The position numbers were made by a program, and so were the translations under genes. A stretch of 41,394 bases of DNA, taken from a virus. Within the stretch, counting starts at the first letter, position 1, and each line of letters opens with the position of its first letter. Below, in pieces: positions 6,176-33,742 of this stretch. The DNA is taken from IMG/VR virus record IMGVR_UViG_3300045988_021887, positions 1 through 41,394 of that record. The stretch is one strand, 5' to 3'. The notes beneath the pieces were generated by a model, which saw only the letters and a program-made list of their open reading frames with translations, searched no databases and was not told where the DNA came from.

Positions 6176-6184
6176 TGGTGAGTG

Positions 6185-6646
6185 ATGAAAATACTTGATG
6201 CTTGTTGTGGCAGTAGAATGTTTTGGTTCGATAGGGAACACAAAGAAACTGTATATATGGACAAACGAACATTAGATACAACGCTTTGTGATGGTAGGAA
6301 GTTAATCGTAAAGCCTGATGTGATCGCAGATTTCCGTAAGATGCCTTTTGAAGATGAGAGTTTTCACTTGGTAGTGTTTGACCCACCACATTTATTAAAA
6401 GTAGGTGATAAATCATTTTTGGCATTGAAATATGGTCGATTAGAACAAACGTGGCAAGAGGATATAAAACAAGGCTTATCAGAGTGTTGGCGAGTACTAA
6501 AACAAAACGGAACGTTAATCTTTAAATGGAATGAAGAACAAGTAACGTTACCGATGGTTAAATGGTTACTTCCTAATGAGCCAATATTTGGCCAACGTAG
6601 AGGTAAAACAGTATGGTTAGTGTTTTTTAAGGATAAGGAGAAATAA
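6185..6646 (+). CDS. SAM-dependent DNA methyltransferase (amino-MTase, DPPH motif)
   Basis: Motif I-like ILDACCGS and motif IV VVFDPPH. About 153 aa. Confidence 0.65.
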   Translation: MKILDACCGSRMFWFDREHKETVYMDKRTLDTTLCDGRKLIVKPDVIADFRKMPFEDESFHLVVFDPPHLLKVGDKSFLALKYGRLEQTWQEDIKQGLSECWRVLKQNGTLIFKWNEEQVTLPMVKWLLPNEPIFGQRRGKTVWLVFFKDKEK

Positions 6647-6648
6647 AC

Positions 6649-7041
6649 ATGAATAAGATTGTATCCGCTTTATTGGTAGTAGTTATGATTGGTGCGGTAG
6701 TTTGGAGTTTTGCGTTTGGTGTTCCAATGTATATGGTTTGGCAGCAACAAAAGGCAGGCGAGGCAGAACTTGCTAGAGCGGAACAAAATAGGCAAGTTGC
6801 GGTATTAGAGGCTAAAGCAAAACTAGATAGTGCGGAAAGCCTAGCACAAGCGGAAGTAAAACGTGCAGAGGGTACTGCAAAAGCCAATCAAATTATCGGT
6901 CAATCATTGAAAGGTAATGAGGCATACATCCATTGGTTATGGGTAGATACTTTAAAAGATAGTAAAGACCAAATCATCTACATTCCAACAGAGGCTGGTG
7001 TGCCTATTACTGAAAGTTTCAGATTAAAAGAAAGTAAATAG
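6649..7041 (+). CDS. Membrane-anchored SPFH/Band-7 (prohibitin)-like protein
   Basis: N-terminal TM helix, then the Ala/Glu-rich segment AELARAEQNRQVAVLEAKAKLDSAESLAQAEVKRAEGTAKANQIIG...YIHWLW...IIYIPTE, like the C-terminal part of SPFH proteins. Confidence 0.5.
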   Translation: MNKIVSALLVVVMIGAVVWSFAFGVPMYMVWQQQKAGEAELARAEQNRQVAVLEAKAKLDSAESLAQAEVKRAEGTAKANQIIGQSLKGNEAYIHWLWVDTLKDSKDQIIYIPTEAGVPITESFRLKESK

Positions 7042-8874: not shown

Positions 8875-9385
8875 TTAAACAAGCGTTGATAAGTGGTGCT
8901 AAATCTGATGAATGGTATACACCTATTGAAGTTGTAAGAACAATGCTTGATGTGTATCCACCTAAAAAGGGCGATAGAGTGTTGATGCCATTTGATACAG
9001 ATAAGAGCAATTTTGTAAAAGTAATAACAAAAGAGTATGACGAAAACGCAGTATATGGAATAACTGATTTTATGACTAATACATATGATTTTGATTACTT
9101 AATCACAAACCCACCTTACAGTAACAAGGATGAAATTATAGCAAGATGCATAGAAAGTGGTAAGCCGTGTGTACTGGTATTACCTATTGATGCACTGGGG
9201 GGGTACAAAGGCACAAGCTATACAGTAAAACGAACATAAGTGTCTACGTACCTACAAAAAGAATTAAGTTTATAAGTGAAAATGGCGAGCATAAAAAATC
9301 GCCAGCAAACCATAGCGTGATCATGATGATTAACGCACCTAAAACAGAGATTATATTTGAATATCAAAAGGAGAAATTAACATGA
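8871..9385 (+). pseudogene. DNA (adenine) methyltransferase split by a frameshift at a G7 tract
   Basis: SDEWYTP and ITNPPYS lie in frame 0. Frame 0 stops at 9239, but 60 stop-free codons (VQRHKLYSKTNISVYVPTKRIKFISENG...IIFEYQKEKLT) continue in the -1 frame from the G run at 9197..9203 to the TGA at 9383..9385. Confidence 0.65.
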
Positions 9386-9432
9386 ACAAAAAATTAGTAG
9401 CAGAAGTGGAAGCGTTGAAAGCTGGCAAATAA
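9382..9432 (+). CDS. Possible 16-codon micro-ORF (MNKKLVAEVEALKAGK)
   Basis: ATG 8 nt after AAGGAG. Too short to validate. Confidence 0.2.
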   Translation: MNKKLVAEVEALKAGK

Positions 9433-9433
9433 T

Positions 9434-9880: not shown

Positions 9881-9892
9881 GAGGTGAGTAAA

Positions 9893-10204
9893 ATGAATGA
9901 AGAAAATAAAAATGAATTAAGTATTAGTGAACCTGAATGGCAAGCTAGATTTAGAGGAGAGTATAAGGGATTAAAAGAGCGTTACAACAAACTGCACAGA
10001 ATGATTGTTAAATATGATGCTGGAACTTTAGATTTTAAACCAACGTGTCCTATAGATTTATTGCGTAGGCAAAAGGCTACTATGGGAGAGTATTTAAACA
10101 TACTTGAAATTAGAGCAGAAATTGAAAATATACGTGGTTTAGAGGATGATAACACTAAAGTAAAAATCGATTATGAAATAGCAAAGAATGGGAGATTTGC
10201 ATGA
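9893..10204 (+). CDS. Conserved phage protein (crAss001_48-like family by recollection)
   Basis: EWQARFRGEYKGLKERYNKLHRMIVKYDAGTLDFKPTCPIDLL...EYLNILEIRAEIE. Function unknown. Confidence 0.5.
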   Translation: MNEENKNELSISEPEWQARFRGEYKGLKERYNKLHRMIVKYDAGTLDFKPTCPIDLLRRQKATMGEYLNILEIRAEIENIRGLEDDNTKVKIDYEIAKNGRFA

Positions 10205-10871: not shown

Positions 10872-11006
10872 ATGATATGGTTTATGTTATTTTGTTTGAT
10901 AGTTGCTATGGGTAATGTGGACAATGGCTATGCAAATGCAATTATATTTATAGCTTGGTGCGTGTTGGTTTACTTGATGCTTATAAATGGTGGCTTTAAA
11001 GAGTGA
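10872..11006 (+). CDS. Possible 44-aa membrane peptide
   Basis: MIWFMLFCLIVAMGNVDNGYANAIIFIAWCVLVYLMLINGGFKE, two hydrophobic helices. Below the ORF-track cutoff. It fills an otherwise empty gap on the coding strand. Confidence 0.3.
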   Translation: MIWFMLFCLIVAMGNVDNGYANAIIFIAWCVLVYLMLINGGFKE

Positions 11007-11466
11007 GGTGAAGTGTTTGGGAGAATATGACGAAAAGAAACTAATAGAAATGGCGGTTGAGTACTTACAACCTGTTAAGTTAATTGATGTGCAGATTGCA
11101 TCAATTAAGGAAGAAATCAATCAACTAAGAGCGAACCTTACATCCATAGGTGCTATTGATTACTCAAAAGATAGAGTAACAGGCGGTGGAACTCCGCAAG
11201 GGTTAGAGGGTAGCGTAGCTAGATTTCTTGATACAGTAGCAGAACGTGATAAGCGTATTGATGAGTTATCAAAGTTAAAATGCGATGCGATCACTAAGAT
11301 AGATAGCCTAGATGAAAAGCTAGGGGCAATCATCTTGCGTTATGAATTTGTACTAAACAATACAACAGAAGATGCCTACAAAATGATTGGGTGCTACTCT
11401 ACTAAACAAGCCAAACGATACAAGCAAAAAGCATTATTGGAATTTGGGCAAAAACTTGTCCAGTAA
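10987..11466 (+). CDS. Late-gene transcriptional regulator (ArpU/RinA/DUF1492-like, sigma region-4-like HTH)
   Basis: IDYSKDRVTGGG motif and C-terminal AIILRYEFVLNNTTEDAYKMIGCYSTKQAKRYKQKAL. Last gene before the packaging module. The start is uncertain (ATG 10987 or TTG 11017 after GAGGTG). Confidence 0.6.
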   Translation: MVALKSEVKCLGEYDEKKLIEMAVEYLQPVKLIDVQIASIKEEINQLRANLTSIGAIDYSKDRVTGGGTPQGLEGSVARFLDTVAERDKRIDELSKLKCDAITKIDSLDEKLGAIILRYEFVLNNTTEDAYKMIGCYSTKQAKRYKQKALLEFGQKLVQ

Positions 11467-11521
11467 TGTCCGCAAATGTCCGTAATTGTCCGTGTACCTA
11501 TAGTTTGCTATTAGGTATAAT
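11467..11521 (+). promoter_or_regulatory. Three TGTCCG direct repeats at 10-bp phasing plus a TATAAT box (candidate regulator-dependent late promoter)
   Basis: TGTCCG at 11467, 11477 and 11487. TATAAT at 11516..11521, with no recognisable -35. Confidence 0.4.
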
Positions 11522-11585
11522 TAATATGTAGAAGTTGCCACTAAGCGACTACTACTCACTCTTTCCTTAGGATAAATCAAACACA

Positions 11586-11623
11586 ACAACAAGCACGCCC
11601 ATGTAAGAGCGTGCCTTTGTTGT
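11586..11623 (+). terminator. Intrinsic terminator
   Basis: Core stem GCACGC/GCGTGC (11593..11598 with 11609..11614), extended by ACAACAA/TTGTTGT, with a U-rich 3' side CTTTGTTGT. Confidence 0.6.
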
Positions 11624-11977
11624 ATATGGGCGAAATGGAACGTATAGCGCTAACGGTCGCAGAGTAGCAGCGCAACCATAATTGATTGTTAAGGAAACAA
11701 CACTATACTTTTTTCTAATTTCAATTTGAAGTATGTGTTAAGACAAAATTTTATATGTAAATTTACTGCTAACTGATAAGGGTGGGTCGAATATCCTCAC
11801 AATATATAGCTTATACATTATTAACCTTAAAGATATGAACCTGCCCTAATTGGTTATACACATTGAATACTGACAACTAGCAGCCTCCAAAAGAAACTTA
11901 TTCATATTCTTGTTGTTACTTAACCTAACACGATTACGATCCATCAAAATGTTAGTTGTTGGTATTGAGTGTGTAAT

Positions 11978-12090
11978 GATCATTGAAAACTAGGTGTGTT
12001 TCTCTTTTCCAACTTTGTATTTCTTATTCACATTTGAACTCCAAATTGCGTAAATTGTCATATCATCAACACACCTAGTTTTGAGTGATT
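11978..12090. repeat. Imperfect 23-bp inverted repeat flanking a 67-nt pyrimidine-rich spacer
   Basis: GATCATTGAAAACTAGGTGTGTT (11978..12000) against AACACACCTAGTTTTGAGTGATT (12068..12090). The inner 15 bp are perfect and 20/23 match overall. ATTGAAAACT repeats directly at 12091..12100. Confidence 0.65.
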
Positions 12091-12251
12091 ATTGAAAACT
12101 GGAGTTATATTTGTTTCCTAGGTACTTAACACACAATATAGAGTTTTAGAAGAAATGCTAATTCCTATGTGTTACATTGACAAGAGTTCAATGGTATAAC
12201 TTCGGTTTTAAATAATCAACACAATAAAAATGAATAAAACTATCACATAAT

Positions 12252-12284
12252 GAGGTATATCTACGTGGATATATCTCATTTTTT
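12252..12284 (+). terminator. Intrinsic terminator immediately upstream of the first late ORF
   Basis: 10-bp stem GAGGTATATC/GATATATCTC with one G-U pair, loop TACGTG, then ATTTTTT. It lies 28 nt before the ATG at 12313. Confidence 0.65.
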
Positions 12285-12312
12285 GCATAAATCTATCAAA
12301 GGTGGTACAAGA

Positions 12313-12507
12313 ATGACACAGATACATTGCGATAGAAAACATTGTCTAAACAATGACAAACATGGCATATGTACTGCCAAAACAATCGAATACAATGGCA
12401 GGTGTCAAACATATATTACACATAGTAGTGCAAGTAAAAATAAATGTGGCTTATGTGTTAGATCACATGGGAAATTAAAAAGGAAAGGTGGCGAAGTGCT
12501 GAAATGA
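12313..12507 (+). CDS. Cys-rich DUF1540-like protein
   Basis: ATG after AAAGGTGG. HCDRKHCLNNDKHGICTAKTIEYNGRCQTY resembles DUF1540. The ORF-track start at 12250 would run through the terminator. Confidence 0.5.
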   Translation: MTQIHCDRKHCLNNDKHGICTAKTIEYNGRCQTYITHSSASKNKCGLCVRSHGKLKRKGGEVLK

Positions 12508-18757: not shown

Positions 18758-19114
18758 ATGATGTTAGATAAAGATAATATGTTTTTCTTCCGAAAAGACA
18801 TTACTACAAATACAAATTCCGATGTTGTTTATAATGGTGGCGCTGGAAATGCATATGTTGCACCTTGGCTTGTTATTCGCCTTGAAAAAGATGTAACTGG
18901 TACACCTTTATTCAATGTGTATACATCTGATAAGGAAAATATGGCAAATGCTGTTTTACTTCATGGTATTACGTTGCCTGCAAATTCTAAAGCAGGTACA
19001 GAGGTTGTTACACGTTTAGGTCAAGGTGCAAAAGAGTATATCAGAATTAACGCCAATAATATGACTGCTGGCGCTATTTCTGCATTCTTGGTGTTTGATG
19101 CGAATACAATCTAA
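18758..19114 (+). CDS. Possible capsid decoration/cement protein
   Basis: 118 aa immediately after the capsid gene. Called by position only. Confidence 0.35.
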   Translation: MMLDKDNMFFFRKDITTNTNSDVVYNGGAGNAYVAPWLVIRLEKDVTGTPLFNVYTSDKENMANAVLLHGITLPANSKAGTEVVTRLGQGAKEYIRINANNMTAGAISAFLVFDANTI

Positions 19115-19125
19115 TGGGGGTAACT

Positions 19126-19380
19126 ATGTTAGTAACAACTAAAAAGAAAATTTACTTATGCGATTTTGGTGTTATTGATGAGGGTGTAGAAATTGATGTT
19201 TCTGCAGAAATCATTGAACAGTTTGGTCATGAAACTTTTGAGGGTATTCCAGTTGAGGAACCAACAGAGGAACATACAGAAGAAACTGTAGAGGAAACTA
19301 CAGAAGAAACTACAGAAGAAACTGCTGAGGAAACTAAACCACAGAAACGTGGCAAAAAAGCGAAAGAAACTGCTGAATAA
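19126..19380 (+). CDS. Acidic repeat protein (TEET repeats, basic C-terminal tail)
   Basis: ATG after GGGGGT. C-terminal EEPTEEHTEETVEETTEETTEETAEETKPQKRGKKAKE. Confidence 0.5.
   Translation: MLVTTKKKIYLCDFGVIDEGVEIDVSAEIIEQFGHETFEGIPVEEPTEEHTEETVEETTEETTEETAEETKPQKRGKKAKETAE
19279..19338 (+). repeat. Five tandem 12-bp units (GARGAAACTNNN)
   Basis: GAAGAAACTGTA, GAGGAAACTACA, GAAGAAACTACA, GAAGAAACTGCT, GAGGAAACTAAA. Confidence 0.85.
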
Positions 19381-19386
19381 TTGAAC

Positions 19387-19416
19387 GAGGGGTGCTTATG
19401 CATCCCTCTTTTTTTA
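19387..19416 (+). terminator. Intrinsic terminator between the head and tail genes
   Basis: GAGGGGTGC-TTAT-GCATCCCTC followed by T8. Confidence 0.7.
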
Positions 19417-19431: not shown

Positions 19432-20025
19432 ATGACACCTACTGATATTTGCAATCAAGCGTTATCGCTTATCAATGCAGGTCGCATCCGTTCTATGACG
19501 GAAGAAACAGAACCTGCTAGACAATGCAGATTGCATTATGATCTAACACGTAGAGTATTGTTAGAACAGTTTGAATGGAACTTTGCACGTAAGCGTGAAC
19601 GAGCGGTATTGTCAGAACATAAGATTGATGGCTGGGGTTATGTGTATGCATACCCTGAAAAGTGCGTTCGCATCCTTGCGGTAATTCCACAGGGGGAACG
19701 ATACCGAGCGGAAAAGCAACGTGAATATGATGTTTATTTGACTGATAACAATACAAAGTACATCGTATCTGATGTACCATTAATGCACATTGATTATGTA
19801 TACGATATTACTGATGCTGATGTAATGAACCCTATATTCGTTAAAGCATTAGTATGTAAGATGGCATCTGACCTAGCAATGCCACTAACAGGCAATAGCG
19901 GTTTATTCGACCAATCATACAAGCTATATCAAGCAGCATTACAAGAGGCAAAATCTATGAGTGCTAAAGAGCGTAGATTAGATATGCCTTATGTTTCTAA
20001 CTATATCAAGGCAAGGAGTTGGTGA
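19432..20025 (+). CDS. Adaptor / tail tubular protein A (T7 gp11 analogue)
   Basis: 197 aa (T7 gp11 is about 196 aa). N-terminal ICNQALSLINAGRI...RQCRLHYDLTRRVLLEQFEWNFA. Position after the head genes. Confidence 0.55.
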   Translation: MTPTDICNQALSLINAGRIRSMTEETEPARQCRLHYDLTRRVLLEQFEWNFARKRERAVLSEHKIDGWGYVYAYPEKCVRILAVIPQGERYRAEKQREYDVYLTDNNTKYIVSDVPLMHIDYVYDITDADVMNPIFVKALVCKMASDLAMPLTGNSGLFDQSYKLYQAALQEAKSMSAKERRLDMPYVSNYIKARSW

Positions 20026-25597: not shown

Positions 25598-28500
25598 ATG
25601 TCTAATAACCCATGGAAAATAGAACAACAAAAAATCAACCCATTTATTAACAAGGATGGTGATCATGGAGAGTTAGGCACACCTGTTAATGGAGTTGTAG
25701 GTAATGCGGTAGATGCAGTAAAGCAAGTAGGTAATGCGTTAGGCGGTTTAGCAGATGCACCTTATCTAGTCGATACAACTGGTAGTGGTAAGGATAGAAC
25801 CTTACAGACTGTATCTACCATTGGTGAGGCTTTAAAGGAAAACCCTATTGTAAATAACCCAGCCTTGCAAGCTGCATCAGCACGCTTTATCTACGCAAGT
25901 AGTGATGCGGTAAAAGCTAATGCAGCACTAGACTATGCTAATAAATTAAACATCGGTGCTGATGTTATATTGAATAGTGGCGAAACAGGTTTTACAAGAG
26001 CAGCATATCTTGCAAATCAAGTAGAACGTGGTAGAACTGTACAATCTCTATATGATGAGTACCCAGAACTTTACAAGGTTAAATATGGTTCACAGTCAGA
26101 GGCTATGTATAGTTTAGAGAATTTACAGTCTATCAAATCTACTCATGGTATATGGGATAGCATCCAACAGAATATATGGTCTATCAATGATCAAATGAAA
26201 TTAGGCGATGCTGGTTATGAATTATCCAATACTACAGACCCTAAGAAAATCGAAGAACTCACAAACGAAATTCAACGATTACAAACTAACCTTTCAAATT
26301 ATCGTCATGCAGATGGACTAGATATAGCACAAGCCGTAATTGGTGAAACCGCTGGACAAGGCTACATGATGGCTAAACAAGGTGGTGTAGGTGCGGTAGC
26401 TGGTGCAGTTGCTGGTGCATTAATCGGTGGTTTAGCTACAGAGGGCGTAGGTGCAGGTGCAGGTGCTGCTACTGGTGCTAAATGGGGTGGCGGTGCTGAT
26501 ATGGCACGCAATATGTACAAAATGTCATTTGGCAATAAGTACATCGAACTCATTCAAAAGAAAGATGCAAATGGTAATCGTGTTTACACAGACCAAGAGG
26601 CTAATCAATACGCTATGTCATTTGCTGCTATTGATGCAGGTATTGAGTTTGCAGCAACCGCAGCTATGGGTAAAGCCTTTAAAGCGGTAGCACCTAAAGG
26701 AATGATTGCAAAAGCTATTAGTGCTGGTGTAGGTGATACAGTTAAAACCTTTGATAGAGGTATCGGAACAACAGTTGCGCAGATGGCTAAAAATTCTATT
26801 AAATCTGGTGTACCTGAACTATTTGAAGAGGGCTTGCAAGATGTAAATGAAAAGGTACAACACAACCTAACACGCAAGGATAATGACTTAGAGGGTTATT
26901 ATAGCGTAGGTGATATTGCTATAGGTTCGCTTGATGCTATGAAACAAGCGTTGCCAGCTGTAATAGGGTTTGGTGCTATCGGTGGTGCAGTAGGTGGTGT
27001 GCGTACTGCAAAGGCTTTTCGTGATTTTCAGAAGTTGACACCAGAACAACAACAAGCAGCTATCATCGCAGAGCAAAACCGCAATGGCGCAGTCATTATG
27101 GATAATGTTCGTAAGGATAGCACTACCAATAAAATCGCAAAAGAAAACCCTGAACTATACGGAAAAATCGTACAAGCACAGGGCGATAAGGTTGGAGTAT
27201 CAACTCAATATGTAGATGTAGCGGAATTAGTACAATCTGAAAACGGACAACTGGCAATTCGTGATATGGTTGATAACGGCTTAGTAACACAAGAGGAAGT
27301 GAAAGCAGCTATTGAGGCTGATGCACCTGTTGAAATTCCTATTGGTAGTTATGCACAAGTATCTATGAACCTATCAGATGAAACAGTAGAGGCATTGAAA
27401 CAAACCTCTTACTTTACACGTGGCGGTATGTCATTAGCTACGCTAGAACGTGCAAAACAAGAAGTGGATGTAGCTAAATCTGTATTAAAAGACGATACAT
27501 CTAAACGTGCTGAACGTATCAAAGATGATATTATCCGTAATGAGTTTGAGGGTGCATCTGATGTAGATCGTGAAGTACTTAATCAAGTATTGGCAGACCC
27601 TACGAACATTAAACGTAACTTCAATAACTTATTGCATACCTTGAAAGAGCAATATAGAGAAACCTATGCAAGCGACTTTGACAATGCAGATAAATCTATC
27701 AATGATGCGGTAAGTACTGGTATTGAACCACAATGGTTAGTTGATTATAAAGCTAACAATGGCGGTAAAGCACCACGTACTAATGCAGAACGTAGACGAG
27801 CAGCATATGAGTATAGCAGAGCAACTACAACTGAAAGCCTTAATGGTAACGCTGATGCACTAGCACAATCTGATGCACATTATGCAGATATGGAACATAT
27901 GTTGATGCAAATCGAAAGTTTAGAGGCTATGAAAGATAAAGTCTTTGAATTGGCGAATAATGACATAGCATTACGGATGCAATTATCTAAAAGTGGATAT
28001 GATGTGTACAACGAAGTAGTTAAAGCTATTAGTGAAAGCACAAATAGAAAACAACGTGAAACTGCAAAAGCAAATGCATTATTGATGGCACAACACGCTG
28101 ATATAATGGCACAATATATGCGACAAATGGGTAAAGGCGGTTATACCGCTATGGACTATTTGCGTGATAGCGTGCGTATTAATATGAATGCAGTTTTAGA
28201 CAATCAAAAAGGTTATAATCAAAATACAAAAGCAGTATGGGAAAGCAAACTTGATAAAGTATTAAGTGATTGGGCTAACAATGTAGATAATGCTAATAAT
28301 ATAGGAAGTAAAAAAACAATAGATATAATGGATTCACCATTAGTCTTTAAGTTGATTAATCTTGACTTAAAAAAAATCAAAATTACAGGCGGTGTTTTGC
28401 ATAAAATATTGCGTTCACCTGTATTTGATTCTAACGGTAAAAGAATTTTATCTGGACATAATGATACAGTTTCCATTGATATGTTGAAACAGTTACCTAA

Positions 28501-31500
28501 TACCATTGCAAATCCATCTGCAATATTTAGTGCAGATAATGGCAAAAAAATTATCATTATAACTGAAGTAATTGGTTTAAACGGAAAGCCTATAATGATG
28601 CCAATATTATTGAACAAATACAATGATAGAGGTGATTATCATGTTGTACAATCTTATTATGCTAGAAATACCAATATAGCGTATTATGATTTGTTATTGG
28701 GTGGGGATTTAATATATATAAACAAAGAACGACTTAGTAATAATCCAAAAAACCAGCCACCATGGCTTGGGGGGATTAAACTAAGTCGTTCATTTATTAA
28801 TAGTATACCAAACGAAAATGATTTAGACAATCTCCGAAAACAACATAATTATCAATATTATCAATCCGCATGGCATGGTTCGCCACATGACTTTGACACA
28901 TTTGATTTAGGTGCTATTGGTACTGGTGAGGGCAATCAAGCACATGGTTGGGGTTTGTATTTTGCTAAAGATAAAAAAGTATCCAAACTATATAAAGAGG
29001 TATTGAGTAAAGAACAAGGCTCTAACAAAAGCAGTTTATTTAAAGTAGAAATACCAAATGAAACAGAGTTATTACCAGAGCAACACCCTATTTCTGGATA
29101 TAGTCGATATGTAAGAGATAGCTTGAAAAACGGATTACATAAAATGTCAGAAGAACAACTGGAACGTTTTACAAGTCTATTAATTAAATATCACAAAGGG
29201 TCTATTATTGGTGATGAATGGACAAATAAATACACACGCTTTATGGATGTAGGGTACATAATATCTGAACTACATAACAAAAATAAAACAATAAATGACA
29301 TCAATAAAATTCAAAAAAGAAATATTGATAGATTTTTAAAAACAGTAGGCATCGATGAAGATATTGACACCATATCTAGTAACGATGAACTATTAAAAAA
29401 TGTATATGAAAAGTTTAGAAATGAGTTATATCCAAAATATGAAAAAGAAAAACAAGTAGAACGAGAACGTGAAGAAAAAGCTATCTTGAATGTTAAGACT
29501 GATGTATATGGTGCATTAGAGAAAACAAATATTGATGGTAAACAGCTGTATTCATTCTTATCTCATGCACTTGGCAATGATGAACATTTTAATCTTCATA
29601 ATGTAAAAAATGCTAAAAAAGCTAGTGAATTTTTAAATAGCATCGGTATAAAAGGTATATACTACGATGGCGAACAAGATGGACGATGCTATGTAGTGTT
29701 CGATGATAAGGCAATCAACGTCATTGAAAAGTACAATCAATCTGTTAATGGTATGACCGAAATCATGAAAGATGGTAAACGCATCATCAGCATTTTCAAA
29801 ACTGCAGATAGAAGTACATTCTTACACGAAATGGGTCATGTATTCTTTGATGATATACAAAAATTAGCATCTATGGAAAACGCACCTGAGCAACTTGTAA
29901 CAGATTGGAACAAGTTGAAAGAGTGGAGCGGTTGGGTTGATGGTGAAAACGTAGACAATACCAAAGCACATGAGAAATTCGCACGAGGTTGGGAAAGCTA
30001 CTTGCGAAGTGGTGAAGCACCAACAAGTGCATTGCAAAGAGTATTCCGTCAATTCTCCAAATGGCTAACATACATTTATCGTAGCGTTCAACGATTAGGT
30101 GGTGAAGTACCATCTGACATTAAAGATGTTATGGCACGTATGATCGCAACCCAAGAGGATATTGAGGCATACGCAGAGCAACAACAACTAGAACAGTTTG
30201 AAAAAACTGAACTGTATAAGCAACTATCCGAGCAAGACCAAGCACGTATGCAGTCTTATATTGCAGATGTAAAAGAAAAAGCAAAAGAACGTGTGATGCG
30301 TAAACTCATGAAAGAACTTGATAATAGACCTATCAAGGAATGGGAAGAAGAAAAGGATGCAATACAAGGCGAAATCGAAAAACGATTGATTGAACAATAT
30401 CCTATCTATAAAGACCATCAACGATACAACACATTTGGTGAGACTGCTTTTGAAAAAACACAATACAATTCTATTGAAGAGTTAGAGAAAGCAGAAGTAG
30501 AACAAACTGGCGCTACATTTAACGATGCTATTAATCAAGAAATGGACAATGCAAAAGCAGAGTTTATGCGTGATAATAATGTAGGCAAAACCAACGAACA
30601 AATAGCAGAAGAAATCTTGCTTAGTACACAAGGTCAAATGAAATTAACCGAAGAAGAAAGTAAGATTATCCAACAATCTACTAATCGTGAGTTAGCGAAG
30701 AACTGGGAATTGCTAGAACGTATTCGTAAGTTAGATACTAACGCAGAAACTATCGATACAGAGTTAGACGAAATCGAAAAAGAGGTTAAGCCTACTAAGT
30801 ACGATGAGTTGAAATCTGATAAGAAAAAAGTAGATGCTGCTTTATCTGATACTACTAAGCAACTAGAAAAAGCAGAAGAGCGTATCGAACGCTTACAAGC
30901 TATGTTAAATAACCGCATCAACAATGTACGTTCTATTCGAGGTGCTGGACTTGGTACAATTTCAGACTACATGGAGCGTGCAAGAAAAGAGTTGGGTGCA
31001 TTACCTATTTCTAATGCGGTACAGTTTAAAACGTATCAAAACAAAGCTGTAACTGCTGGTAAAAAAGCAGATAGAGCATTGGCAGTAGGTGATGTTGATA
31101 AGGCACTTGGCTTTAAGCGTGAACAGATGCTACAACAAGCAAGGGCAAGAGTAGCGTTTGAGAATTTTGAAAAGTCCAAGAAATTGCGATTGAAATTAAA
31201 ACAACAATTACAACGCATGACTAGACCCAAGAACCCTATTGCTATTGAACCTAATATGCGTTATTTCTACAATCACATGGCATATCAAATGGGTTTAACT
31301 AAGTATGACGGCTTACAACCTGTTGATGGTTTTGATATGAATAGTGTGTTAGCTGCATTAGATCCTGATGTTGGTATTCTAAATCAACAATCTATGGTTC
31401 AATTAGAACCTTGGATAGTTGAGATGTTCTACTCTAAAACACCTAAACCATTCCGTTCCATCACGATGAATGAGTTAGAAACCTTAGAAGAACTCATGAC

Positions 31501-33742
31501 TGGTATGTATAAGAACGGCAGAAATGAGTATGAGGGTACAACAATTCTCAACGATAAAGGTGATAGTGTATCGTTTGAAAATGCAGTACAAGAAATCATT
31601 GGCGAGGCTACAGAAACATTTGGCAAAGAAAGTGGCGATGTATTCAACAAACTCAACAATCAAACTAAGATGGATGCAGTAAGTGGTAAGTTGTATAGTT
31701 TCCACTTAGCATTGCTTAAAGTTGAAACATTCTTACGCAGAATGGGTGGCGGTAAAAATGGGTTCGCAGTTAAATACATCTATGACCCAATCAATAGAGC
31801 AACACAAGCGTTCAATGAACGTAAAGAAGTGTCTATGCGTAGACTGGCAAAAGATGTAGGAATATATTCCAAGCGTGAACTGTTTGATATGCGAAATGAC
31901 CATTTGTATACAGTTGGTGAGTTATACGGCTTAACAAAAGAGCAACTTATCATGATTGCTCTTAACTGGGGTACGGAAAGCAACCGACAACGTGTAATGG
32001 AAACCACAAAAGCAAATGAGGTTGAAATTGAACGTGCGTTCCAAGAACACATGACTGATAAGGACTGGGAGTTTGTTATTCGTACATGGGATCATATCAA
32101 TTCATTCTTTGAAGAGCGCAGCCGAGTACAAGAGGAATTATACGGAAACCCATTGAAGAAAGTAAAAGGTTTAACATTTACTATTGGTGGTAGAAACATT
32201 GAGGGGCAATATTTCCCTATTGTGTACAATCCTAAAGTCAATGCATCTGTAAGCGACAACCAAGTTGAAGATATTGCTAAAACTATGGTTAGTAGCAATG
32301 CAGTATGGGGAACTGGCATGAGTGCTACTAAATCACGTTTAGATGTGGTTAAGGATAAATCATTGTTACTTGATTTTGATGTAATTCCTAATGCTATTAC
32401 AGAGGCTATTAATCACGTTACAATGCGTAAAGCGGTAACTGATGTTAATAAGCTAATCAGTAATAGAGAATTGCAAAACTACATTGTGGATAAGTTTGGA
32501 GCTGATACGTATCAATTCTTGCGAACTTGGGTTCGTGATAACTGGCAAGATGAACCAGCAAAGGTTAGTGCGTTTGATAGATTAGTACTTACATTAAAGA
32601 AAAATACATCAACCGCAGTTATGGCTGGTAGAATATCAGTAGCTTTACAAAATGCGTTGAACTTACCAGTTGCGTTTTATCGTATTGGTGTAGGTAACAC
32701 TATTAGAGCTATAAATCATGCTGGAATAGGGTTCTATGGACACGGTACAACTACTTATAACAACACTAGAGATTTTGTATTAGCACAATCAATCTTCATG
32801 CGTGAACGTGTTCAAACTTTGGATAAAGACTTGAAACAAGGCTTATCTATTGGTGGTAAAGGTATTCGCATTAACGATACTAATATTGCTAATTATAAAG
32901 CAGAACAACTTGCTGATATTCGAGATGATATAAACCAAATGGGGTTTAGATTGCTTACAGAAACAGACTTTGCATTGTCTATTCCTGTATGGAAATTTGC
33001 ATATGATCAAAAGCAAGCGGAATTAATTGGTAAAGAGGGTGTAAGTCTTGAATGGATAGAACAACAATCTATCGAGGCTGGCGATAGAGCGGTTAGAGAT
33101 ATATTTGGTAGTGGTGATACTAAAGATGCTGCTGCAATTCAACGTGCTAGAAGTTCTGTTATGCAAATGTTCGTACCATTCTATTCCTACGCTAATACGC
33201 TTTATAACATTATTACAGAGGGGAACTACGCACGGAAAGATACTGGTGATCACGCAAGGTTCGTTAAAATGCTATGGTGGACATTGATTTCACAAGCAGT
33301 AGGTATGACGGCTTACAAAGCTATGACGAATGGCGATGATGATAAGCCTGATGATTTAGCTAAGTCATTTATCGAAGAATTAGTTGCACAAGGTACTATG
33401 GGTATTCCATTGGTTAGGGATATAACCAATATGGCTATGAAGTTTGTATTGAGAGAAAGACCTTATAATAAAGGAAACACAGTATTAGCTACAAGCATAG
33501 CAGAAAAATTCTACGATGTTGGAAACGCTATTATGTCAGACAAGAAAGATGGTGTTGATTTAGGCAGAAGTCTTAGTCAGTTAGCGAACAGGGCAACTGG
33601 TTTTAGTGATACTGTTACAGATGGACTATGGACATTAGCTAAATATGCGTTCACCGATACCGATGCAAAACTAGAAGATGTAATCATGGCTATCATGTTT
33701 GACCGTAGACTTAAAACTAAAAAAGATAAAAAGAAACATTGA
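25598..33742 (+). CDS. Giant (2714 aa) polyvalent internal virion / ejection protein (gp16 position)
   Basis: One uninterrupted ORF between the gp15-like gene and the tail-fibre gene. Gly/Ala zipper TM-like segments (26381..26500, about 26960..27000), long coiled coils and the embedded enzymatic modules listed separately. Confidence 0.85.
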   Translation: MSNNPWKIEQQKINPFINKDGDHGELGTPVNGVVGNAVDAVKQVGNALGGLADAPYLVDTTGSGKDRTLQTVSTIGEALKENPIVNNPALQAASARFIYASSDAVKANAALDYANKLNIGADVILNSGETGFTRAAYLANQVERGRTVQSLYDEYPELYKVKYGSQSEAMYSLENLQSIKSTHGIWDSIQQNIWSINDQMKLGDAGYELSNTTDPKKIEELTNEIQRLQTNLSNYRHADGLDIAQAVIGETAGQGYMMAKQGGVGAVAGAVAGALIGGLATEGVGAGAGAATGAKWGGGADMARNMYKMSFGNKYIELIQKKDANGNRVYTDQEANQYAMSFAAIDAGIEFAATAAMGKAFKAVAPKGMIAKAISAGVGDTVKTFDRGIGTTVAQMAKNSIKSGVPELFEEGLQDVNEKVQHNLTRKDNDLEGYYSVGDIAIGSLDAMKQALPAVIGFGAIGGAVGGVRTAKAFRDFQKLTPEQQQAAIIAEQNRNGAVIMDNVRKDSTTNKIAKENPELYGKIVQAQGDKVGVSTQYVDVAELVQSENGQLAIRDMVDNGLVTQEEVKAAIEADAPVEIPIGSYAQVSMNLSDETVEALKQTSYFTRGGMSLATLERAKQEVDVAKSVLKDDTSKRAERIKDDIIRNEFEGASDVDREVLNQVLADPTNIKRNFNNLLHTLKEQYRETYASDFDNADKSINDAVSTGIEPQWLVDYKANNGGKAPRTNAERRRAAYEYSRATTTESLNGNADALAQSDAHYADMEHMLMQIESLEAMKDKVFELANNDIALRMQLSKSGYDVYNEVVKAISESTNRKQRETAKANALLMAQHADIMAQYMRQMGKGGYTAMDYLRDSVRINMNAVLDNQKGYNQNTKAVWESKLDKVLSDWANNVDNANNIGSKKTIDIMDSPLVFKLINLDLKKIKITGGVLHKILRSPVFDSNGKRILSGHNDTVSIDMLKQLPNTIANPSAIFSADNGKKIIIITEVIGLNGKPIMMPILLNKYNDRGDYHVVQSYYARNTNIAYYDLLLGGDLIYINKERLSNNPKNQPPWLGGIKLSRSFINSIPNENDLDNLRKQHNYQYYQSAWHGSPHDFDTFDLGAIGTGEGNQAHGWGLYFAKDKKVSKLYKEVLSKEQGSNKSSLFKVEIPNETELLPEQHPISGYSRYVRDSLKNGLHKMSEEQLERFTSLLIKYHKGSIIGDEWTNKYTRFMDVGYIISELHNKNKTINDINKIQKRNIDRFLKTVGIDEDIDTISSNDELLKNVYEKFRNELYPKYEKEKQVEREREEKAILNVKTDVYGALEKTNIDGKQLYSFLSHALGNDEHFNLHNVKNAKKASEFLNSIGIKGIYYDGEQDGRCYVVFDDKAINVIEKYNQSVNGMTEIMKDGKRIISIFKTADRSTFLHEMGHVFFDDIQKLASMENAPEQLVTDWNKLKEWSGWVDGENVDNTKAHEKFARGWESYLRSGEAPTSALQRVFRQFSKWLTYIYRSVQRLGGEVPSDIKDVMARMIATQEDIEAYAEQQQLEQFEKTELYKQLSEQDQARMQSYIADVKEKAKERVMRKLMKELDNRPIKEWEEEKDAIQGEIEKRLIEQYPIYKDHQRYNTFGETAFEKTQYNSIEELEKAEVEQTGATFNDAINQEMDNAKAEFMRDNNVGKTNEQIAEEILLSTQGQMKLTEEESKIIQQSTNRELAKNWELLERIRKLDTNAETIDTELDEIEKEVKPTKYDELKSDKKKVDAALSDTTKQLEKAEERIERLQAMLNNRINNVRSIRGAGLGTISDYMERARKELGALPISNAVQFKTYQNKAVTAGKKADRALAVGDVDKALGFKREQMLQQARARVAFENFEKSKKLRLKLKQQLQRMTRPKNPIAIEPNMRYFYNHMAYQMGLTKYDGLQPVDGFDMNSVLAALDPDVGILNQQSMVQLEPWIVEMFYSKTPKPFRSITMNELETLEELMTGMYKNGRNEYEGTTILNDKGDSVSFENAVQEIIGEATETFGKESGDVFNKLNNQTKMDAVSGKLYSFHLALLKVETFLRRMGGGKNGFAVKYIYDPINRATQAFNERKEVSMRRLAKDVGIYSKRELFDMRNDHLYTVGELYGLTKEQLIMIALNWGTESNRQRVMETTKANEVEIERAFQEHMTDKDWEFVIRTWDHINSFFEERSRVQEELYGNPLKKVKGLTFTIGGRNIEGQYFPIVYNPKVNASVSDNQVEDIAKTMVSSNAVWGTGMSATKSRLDVVKDKSLLLDFDVIPNAITEAINHVTMRKAVTDVNKLISNRELQNYIVDKFGADTYQFLRTWVRDNWQDEPAKVSAFDRLVLTLKKNTSTAVMAGRISVALQNALNLPVAFYRIGVGNTIRAINHAGIGFYGHGTTTYNNTRDFVLAQSIFMRERVQTLDKDLKQGLSIGGKGIRINDTNIANYKAEQLADIRDDINQMGFRLLTETDFALSIPVWKFAYDQKQAELIGKEGVSLEWIEQQSIEAGDRAVRDIFGSGDTKDAAAIQRARSSVMQMFVPFYSYANTLYNIITEGNYARKDTGDHARFVKMLWWTLISQAVGMTAYKAMTNGDDDKPDDLAKSFIEELVAQGTMGIPLVRDITNMAMKFVLRERPYNKGNTVLATSIAEKFYDVGNAIMSDKKDGVDLGRSLSQLANRATGFSDTVTDGLWTLAKYAFTDTDAKLEDVIMAIMFDRRLKTKKDKKKH
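28300..28700 (+). other. PBECR-like (Barnase-EndoU-ColicinE5/D-RelE-like) nuclease module
   Basis: KIKITGGVLHKILRS...ILSGHNDTVSIDMLKQLPNTIANPSAIFSADNGKKIIIITEVIGLNGKPIMMPILL matches my recollection of the PBECR layout. Confidence 0.5.
28850..29740 (+). other. PARP-like (H-Y-E clade, ART-PolyVal-like) ADP-ribosyltransferase module
   Basis: AWHGSPHDFDTFD (His at 28874..28876), HGWGLYFAKDKKVSKLY (Tyr at 28958..28960) and IKGIYYDG...RCYVVFDDKAINVIEKY. Compare PARP1 LWHGSR / GKGIYFADMVSKSANY / NEYIVYDIAQVNLKY. Confidence 0.5.
29760..30110 (+). other. Zincin-like metallopeptidase module (HEMGH)
   Basis: RSTFLHEMGHVFFDD (29825..29839 encodes HEMGH) followed by AHEKFARGWESYLRSGEAPTSALQRVFRQFSKWLTYIYR. 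Confidence 0.6.

Follow-up and report, generated by a model that had tools for sequence, protein, structure and literature searches.

Tandem long hairpins, apparently an undescribed RNA motif, in the probable late-operon control region of temperate Veillonella phages

In phages of Firmicutes, what is known of late-gene control mainly concerns Ltr proteins, which activate a promoter located upstream of terS. In the systems described from phages of Gram-positive hosts (RinA, ArpU, LtrA-C), the activator gene ends the early region, the protein (shown for RinA, ArpU and LtrC) binds direct repeats immediately distal to its own gene, activator and repeats are exchanged as a unit on an otherwise common downstream spacer, and a terminator lies in that spacer with the packaging genes downstream (Quiles-Puchalt et al., 2013; PMC3753634). 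Two further designs invite comparison: lambda PR'-qut-tR', where a late regulator and promoter are followed by an untranslated leader up to an intrinsic terminator and by a long late operon with further terminators; and the put RNA of HK022 (two short stem-loops, ~70 nt in total), which we consider together with EAR, nut and the LoaP-leader element. Here we analyse IMG/VR virus record IMGVR_UViG_3300045988_021887, positions 1-41,394 (this whole stretch of 41,394 nucleotides is referred to as the window), the complete genome of a temperate phage, opened within the immunity region, and in particular the gap 11467-12312 between its late regulator gene and its first late gene. The host, judging from sequence matches, is Veillonella, and the late-region relatives belong to a family of temperate phages. 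The whole gap looks like a late-operon control region of a known kind containing an RNA motif, an array of long hairpins, that appears undescribed.

The gap measures 846 nt and is the largest between plus-strand genes of the window (the next is 194 nt, at 9240-9433; median 2 nt), in agreement with a preliminary description made from the sequence, which had singled it out as a non-coding leader in an otherwise tightly packed genome. Open reading frames (ORFs) of at least 50 amino acids are indeed absent from both its strands, but the upper limit of about 14 codons given there was too low: the longest ORF has 45 amino acids (minus strand), and plus-strand ORFs of 21-32 codons (e.g. 11983-12078, with a TTG start) sit in hairpin loops. 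We reject coding potential, since these ORFs are short and unconserved and the loops vary in length among relatives by non-multiples of three. The plus strand of the region folds with -203 kcal/mol (z = -7.4 against shuffles; z = -4.7 for the minus strand), and its transcript from 11528 to ~12312, ~770 nt in length, is almost certainly an untranslated, highly structured leader. A relatively GC-rich patch noted earlier (11627-11678) is present, with 55.8% GC against 33.1% for the region, and a 23-bp inverted repeat reported there is real and corresponds to the long hairpin that we call H3; the report understated the situation, as H3 is one of four tandem long hairpins (H1-H4) that follow each other head to tail without spacer (Table 1). 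Comparison of relatives, as set out below, shows with equally high confidence how the leader would be built: a 5'-terminal stem-loop, a three-way-junction domain holding the terminator-like hairpin T1, and tandem long hairpins, most of which have a near-invariant lower stem that contains a G·G mismatch and, above it, an upper stem that varies in sequence yet is always paired.

Relatives were taken from IMG/VR through the regulator (n = 175) and the first late gene (n = 228); modules were surveyed in the first 80, and the wider set comprises >200 related contigs (individual loci bear L numbers below). Among the first 80, every locus had the promoter block; the T1 domain, the spacer, H1 and H2 were missing only from a few loci with a deletion or truncation, while H3, H4 and other unit types were present, absent or swapped. 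Every spacer examined in the wider set holds between one and five long hairpins, most often three or four, of 87-165 nt each, and the array is kept also in lineages whose regulator and first late protein are only ~47% identical to those of the window. Most hairpins have the consensus lower stem YAUU-G-AAWACU / RGUWUU-G-ARUR, in which G8·G41, U7-A42 and A10-U39 are invariant in the pooled stem variants; the upper stem, of 14-17 bp, has different sequences in different unit types. H1 occurs as two alleles (~100% and ~77% identity), both folded. In some lineages the interior of a hairpin is a GC-rich multi-helix junction and not an AU-rich loop. Neighbouring hairpins overlap by ~7 nt, with GUGAUUAU used both as the 3' base of the first and as the 5' base of the second (11968-11991 and 12077-12100; H3 and H4 have 12086-12092 in common). 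The 3' core of a unit is also complementary to the 5' core of the unit after it, so short junction hairpins could form in an alternative register.

Selection on the fold is apparent from the pattern of changes. When 68 distinct stem variants were pooled and anchored on the internal mismatch, 16 of the 21 pairs had changed on both sides (348 cells), with a covariation score of 0.73 as opposed to 0.27 in shuffles and at most 0.13 in slid registers; 98% of the cells were paired, a figure to be discounted when our reading is weighed, because the units had been picked for folding, which inflates the percentage paired and not the diversity of pair types. In the alignment of H2, five of the 23 pairs have compensatory changes, H3 likewise shows compensatory changes, and one-sided changes are in both cases nearly all to G·U. 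Seven of the 43 pairs in the consensus fold of the three-way domain (27 sequences) have compensatory changes, and two such pairs occur in T1 (GCACGC/GCGUGC to GCGCAC/GUGCGC); the terminator before the first late gene, T2, exists as two alleles that differ by compensatory changes, always with a U-rich tract after them. The 5' stem-loop shows little covariation because its sequence is nearly invariant in close relatives. Identity is 92-96% in stems and 78-80% in loops. Conservation among related phages, on which the preliminary description had made its proposals depend, is evident from the alignments of T1, T2, H2 and H3.

Over all stem positions G·U outnumbers A·C by 545 to 15, and the plus strand is the more stable one in 140 of 163 units, so that selection acts on the plus strand as a single strand; with a promoter upstream and a terminator downstream, this strand is best taken to be RNA. 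Of the three possibilities originally put forward for the gap, the one involving RNA products is borne out to the extent that a conserved plus-strand structure is encoded here; discrete small RNAs might be released from it. The same data bear on a reading in which the features act in DNA, as cos, pac or terminal repeats, as an origin or priming signal or as an array of miniature transposable elements. Their location upstream of the packaging genes would suit it, several metagenomic contigs break inside the region, and conserved hairpin ends around variable interiors recall miniature inverted-repeat transposable elements (MITEs). The asymmetry between G·U and A·C and the fixed orientation, however, mean selection on the fold of one strand; a strict motif pattern matched twice in the 41-kb window, both times inside the spacer, and of 466 motif matches in 1.73 Mb of DNA from >200 relatives, 427 are plus-strand matches in the spacer; the contigs break at scattered points, as repeats and mosaic junctions would lead one to expect; and three small genes separate the region from terS. 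We regard action in DNA as very improbable, and the physical genome ends that had been proposed to lie here find no support. Among the remaining 39 matches, the few that were read are coding sequence or ordinary terminators, and most, unread, lie in gene-dense flanks. The Correia, ERIC, RUP and BOX elements are comparable units of ~100-150 nt with conserved inverted ends and variable interiors, whose transcripts fold and can be cut by RNases, but they are dispersed in both orientations over host chromosomes. A MITE or dispersed repeat is rejected on distribution and fixed orientation, within a scope of the 41-kb window and 1.73 Mb of relatives, host chromosomes not having been scanned.

H2, H3 and H4 have stems of 23-26 bp, each interrupted by a single 1x1 mismatch. 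The bacterial enzyme RNase III cleaves duplexes from ~20 bp upwards, and its sites in phages have sequence in common as a result of duplication. The three stems, nearly perfect and longer than this, are expected substrates, and it is plausible that host RNase III would cut the leader into hairpin-sized pieces and leave an mRNA with a processed 5' end. The hairpins might then be RNase III processing or stability elements only, comparable to those of T7, T3 and SP82, giving a trimmed leader with a stable 5' end and a leaky T2 that sets the level, without antitermination. The single internal mismatch in such long stems would fit, as would the freedom with which the upper stems vary provided they stay paired, which makes duplex length the property that is kept. 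The sites of T7, T3 and SP82 are likewise long duplexes with a conserved internal mismatch or loop and a sequence common to the copies in one phage, but they lie between genes, measure ~60 nt and have small loops, whereas the hairpins of the window are stacked head to tail in a leader and enclose inserts of 40-115 nt. Cutting would moreover give a monophosphorylated 5' end, and the invariant G·G with its neighbours points to a reader more specific than RNase III. We therefore find it unlikely that processing is the only role, and the likeness of the hairpins to phage RNase III sites, as to MITE-like repeats, is one of form only. Processing itself is compatible with the cis-acting role considered below.

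The upstream part of the gap agrees with the Ltr paradigm on three sequence-level features, with a regulator that may belong to the Ltr superfamily (ArpU, RinA, LtrA-C). Both elements noted in the preliminary description are there: the direct repeats, TGTCC at an exact period of 10 nt, span the stop codon of the regulator gene, and a TATAAT box follows, so placed that transcripts would start at ~11526-11528. The regulator matches phrog_36 ('transcriptional regulator', E = 2e-13) and, weakly but with residues 41-156 aligned, TIGR01637 phage_arpU (E = 0.0014, 18.9 bits; curated cut-off 43.1); a Pfam search gave no Q-family or other match, even at E up to 5. Most regulator classes keep the block TAGGTATAAT or TAGTATAAT, which in one locus has the variant TATAAG (L085) and in another was not identified (L084). 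Relatives with the regulator class of the window have TGTCC repeats; a second class (~47% identity, C-terminus NVSKCQ) has ATGTCAG repeats on the identical promoter core CCTATAGTTTGCTATTAGGTATAAT, common to both; and a third (~50% identity) has TCGGA-type repeats ahead of ATATAGTATAAT. The last regulator codons are written in the presumed binding repeats of the protein itself, e.g. NVSKCQ from aatgtcagtaaatgtcag (11440-11491; L100, L172, L097, L202). Repeats distal to the regulator gene, of a kind specific to the regulator type and on an otherwise common spacer, are what is found in Ltr systems, and because this pattern recurs here we strongly infer that 11457-11521 is a regulator-dependent late promoter of the known Ltr/ArpU/RinA kind. 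The ArpU/Ltr-like protein would very probably bind the four TGTCC repeats, which are in helical phase and lie where its own gene ends, and activate the promoter with the TATAAT box.

Three features set the locus apart from the described Ltr systems. The host is a diderm Firmicute, the regulator is only distantly similar to ArpU, and the spacer, ~850 nt long, is filled with a conserved hairpin array not described for Ltr phages. Distant homologues of the regulator in clostridia (29-34% identity) mostly lack the long spacer, so that the leader seems specific to the Veillonella lineage.

Two plus-strand intrinsic terminators had been proposed for the gap. The second, T2, stands: it was listed on the plus strand by the terminator scan, has 14 pairs directly before TTTTTT, and carries the compensatory changes mentioned above. 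The first, T1, is a conserved hairpin, but it has the form of an intrinsic terminator only in part: the U-tract is not continuous, and only the minus-strand listing of the scan includes the hairpin. T2 is the best-conserved block relative to distant lineages (88-89% over 61-71 nt, with flanking proteins ~47% identical), and, in the window as in most relatives, its end lies ~30 nt upstream of the first late gene. Direct repeats bracket it (Table 1), and repeats of the form TGWATAAA..TATCA also surround the leader T2 in L083 and L085. A promoter scan listed nothing promoter-like in the stretch from T2 to ATG 12313, where the first late gene starts, so that, as in lambda, a terminator stands between late promoter and late genes. 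T2 is probably a genuine intrinsic terminator, one that would stop transcription and that all transcripts bound for the late genes would have to pass. In public gene calls the first late gene begins within the T2 hairpin, at ATG 12250 (85-amino-acid protein P0001); the ribosome-binding site AGGTGG supports ATG 12313 instead.

Several related loci bear additional elements on this path. A second copy of T2 lies ~1 kb inside the late operon in two of them (L072, ~6180-6260; L136, ~9551), in L072 with the direct repeat TGTATAAATCTATCA on both sides, like a small cassette. Some relatives (among them L229, 1738-2357; L097, ~6850-7030; L197, 5411-5870) have an insert of one to three minus-strand accessory genes, one of which encodes a helix-turn-helix (HTH) protein, on the far side of T2 and ahead of the first late gene, and late transcription must apparently cross them. 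In L097 the inserted genes have a minus-strand promoter close to consensus, with TTGACT and TATAAT separated by a 17-nt spacer that is the palindrome ACTTGCGAAAACGCAAGT. In the window itself, a strong plus-strand intrinsic terminator (GAGGGGTGC..GCATCCCTC followed by seven T) is found at 19387-19408, between the genes 19114-19380 and 19432-20025. Taking T2, its second copies, the inserts and this terminator together, late transcription has several terminators to pass. The late operon ends, before the integrase region, in a bidirectional terminator (38800-38823).

On balance we favour the explanation that the gap is a late-operon control region, made up of a regulator-dependent promoter, a hairpin-array leader and a terminator before the first late gene. 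Late expression gated by a terminator had been suggested by analogy with lambda Q/qut and HK022 put. The anatomy fits, with T2 as the best-conserved block, no promoter after it, and further terminators in the operons; antitermination itself is a prediction, and the regulator is an ArpU/Ltr-like activator and not Q-like. The TGTCC repeats are probable regulator-binding sites and not part of a qut or put element. Lambda differs also in that its Q-binding element lies within the promoter, where the window has phased upstream repeats, and in that the leader of the window is four times longer and highly structured; membership in the Q/qut group was rejected for lack of a Q-family protein, the regulator having no Pfam match. 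From put, EAR, nut and the LoaP-leader element the array differs in that it gives no sequence or model match to them, and from put also in size, with one to five modules of 87-165 nt and a common G·G lower stem. The likeness is one of layout, a structured RNA downstream of a promoter and upstream of terminators that could act in cis on polymerase. We suggest, tentatively, that the hairpin modules are cis-acting RNA signals: a protein of phage or host, or else RNA polymerase itself, would recognize their sequence-specific lower stems, with read-through of T1, T2 and the 19387 terminator as the possible outcome, whether by processive antitermination or by attenuation control. No segment able to pair with the 5' arm of T2 as an antiterminator was found by eye.

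A number of points weigh against this explanation. The transcription start, the stop at T2 and antitermination, if any, are all predicted, and the assignment of the regulator to the ArpU family rests on similarity below threshold or at PHROG level. The terminator role of T1 is not universal, since in L084 and L085 a different hairpin without a U-tract takes its place. A copy number that varies from one to five is unexpected for a fixed element acting before a terminator, as is the one more hairpin unit that some lineages have downstream of T2. None of the phage proteins could be recognized as N-like, as Q-like or as one of a known RNA-binding type. A 79-amino-acid protein encoded directly after the cro-like gene (406-645; pI 10.7, rich in Arg, Lys and Trp, without a family match) is a conceivable RNA-binding or N-like candidate by composition.

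Variable copy number would fit a gene for a trans-acting non-coding RNA (ncRNA) that runs from the promoter to T2, serving as a sponge or decoy for a host or phage factor that binds duplex RNA, or as a precursor of small RNAs derived from the variable interiors, with late genes expressed as a by-product of read-through. A promoter, repeated modules and a conserved terminator do resemble CsrB-like sponges and type III toxI arrays, and the variable interiors are cargo-like, with common short motifs such as CCUAGG and UGUCAUAU. Yet no partner protein or target was identified for it and there are no defence-related matches nearby, some units lie downstream of T2, and the interiors evolve faster than the stems, with no conserved seed found in most unit types. 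We consider such a gene quite unlikely. The palindrome CCUAGG lies in the apical part of H4 (12117-12122), and the self-complementary UUCCUAGGAA/CCUAGG opens the interior of units in L118, L028, L003 and L097; it could support loop-loop pairing between RNAs. A type III toxin-antitoxin system of the toxI kind was rejected: the units are hairpins of 87-165 nt as opposed to repeats of ~34-45 nt, and the downstream proteins have no PADLOC match to toxins of the ToxN/AbiQ type. Nor did the early and the first late proteins include a recognizable RNA-binding or defence protein.

The array fits no known RNA family. The whole window gave no match in Rfam 15 at the gathering threshold (among families that include GOLLD, ROOL, ribozymes, riboswitches, Y RNA and 6S), and an E-value search of 11300-12500 returned seven matches, all well below gathering and led by a miRNA precursor model (E = 0.0085, 29.4 bits where gathering requires 74), a match of the sort produced by any long hairpin. 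A tRNA scan yielded nothing meaningful, and in the literature we found no description of a hairpin-array element; the motif appears undescribed. GOLLD and ROOL are also RNAs of several hundred nt from phages and prophages of Firmicutes and of unknown function, but they have a fixed complex architecture, in contrast to this variable-copy array of similar hairpins in a 5' leader, which has no Rfam match. The lower stem may loosely resemble the distal pre-crRNA:tracrRNA duplex of streptococcal type II-A systems, and mimicry of a host CRISPR repeat (an RNA anti-CRISPR) was considered. The literature supplied no Veillonella repeat sequence to compare with the hairpin arm, and a metagenome scan for arrays with the arm motif proved too unspecific, yielding, among the matches listed, mostly single ones in assorted contigs.

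Veillonella parvula DFI.7.83 and Veillonella metagenome-assembled genomes contain sequences with 98% identity to the regulator. Annotated phage records gave no match to the region or the regulator in near-DNA, distant-DNA and protein searches, and the lineage is absent from INPHARED. The first late protein matches phrog_33034 and is weakly DUF1540-like (E = 0.054); its homologues occur only in this phage group and are unannotated. Elsewhere in the window, a crAss001_48-related protein is encoded just upstream of the regulator block (9884-10204), the portal (PF12236, 15081-16802) is of the T7 type despite the phage being temperate with an integrase, and the tail region holds an ORF of 2714 amino acids (25598-33742).

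Table 1. Positions of the features discussed, in window coordinates; MFE, minimum free energy.
Feature	Position	Strand	Description
Late regulator gene	10987-11466	+	159 amino acids; distant ArpU/Ltr-like activator; end overlaps the repeats
Four TGTCC direct repeats	11457, 11467, 11477, 11487 (11457-11491)	+	Period 10; presumed regulator-binding sites
TATAAT	11516-11521	+	Predicted -10 box
5'-terminal stem-loop	11528-11555	+	-10.4 kcal/mol
Three-way-junction domain	11563-11696	+	Closing stem 11563-11570/11689-11696 encloses the T1 hairpin and a GC-rich stem with a variable hairpin (MFE fold)
T1, terminator-like hairpin	11586-11625	+	A-tract before, interrupted U-tract after (CUUUGUUGU); bidirectional in form
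Small hairpin between T1 domain and array	11699-11739	+	Counterpart in L083
H1, long hairpin	11770-11856	+	87 nt; 8 bp, A·A mismatch, 9 bp; architecture of the others, own sequence type
H2, long hairpin	11857-11975	+	119 nt; -32.7 kcal/mol; lower stem CAUU-G-AAUAC / GUAUU-G-AGUG, G·G mismatch
H3, long hairpin	11976-12092	+	117 nt; -32.2 kcal/mol; lower stem CAUU-G-AAAAC / GUUUU-G-AGUG
H4, long hairpin	12086-12218 (core 12095-12209)	+	-28.1 kcal/mol; G·A mismatch in the window copy
T2 cassette	12231-12298	+	15-nt direct repeats TGAATAAAACTATCA (12231-12245) and TGCATAAATCTATCA (12284-12298) around the hairpin
T2, predicted intrinsic terminator	12249-12286 (hairpin 12249-12280 + U6)	+	13-14 bp stem, one conserved G·U; -15.5 kcal/mol
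First late gene with ribosome-binding site	12300-12507	+	AGGTGG at 12300-12305, ATG 12313; 64 amino acids, Cys-rich
cro-like gene	152-364
Early-region genes			Gam, Erf, NinB, replisome organizer, SSB, methyltransferases, RusA, dUTPase
Late region			Three small genes, then terS (Terminase_2), terL, T7-type portal
Repressor and integrase	Right end of window	-

The leader RNA is better conserved than the neighbouring proteins, and it offers for study hundreds of naturally occurring variants of a new structured RNA motif. A more far-reaching proposal, which we advance as rather doubtful, is that the array represents a new modular class of phage RNA, in which the G·G lower stems would recruit a protein or RNA polymerase for RNA-based processive antitermination in phages of Negativicutes, or else would act in late infection as a sink for a host factor that binds duplex RNA; the number of modules and their interiors would then be free to vary, as they do among the >200 related phages. 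The three regulator classes with their three repeat types would give natural orthogonal activator/operator pairs. If the modules control read-through or are processed, they would add a layer of RNA control to the switch to lysis and packaging in abundant Veillonella phages of the human mouth and gut.

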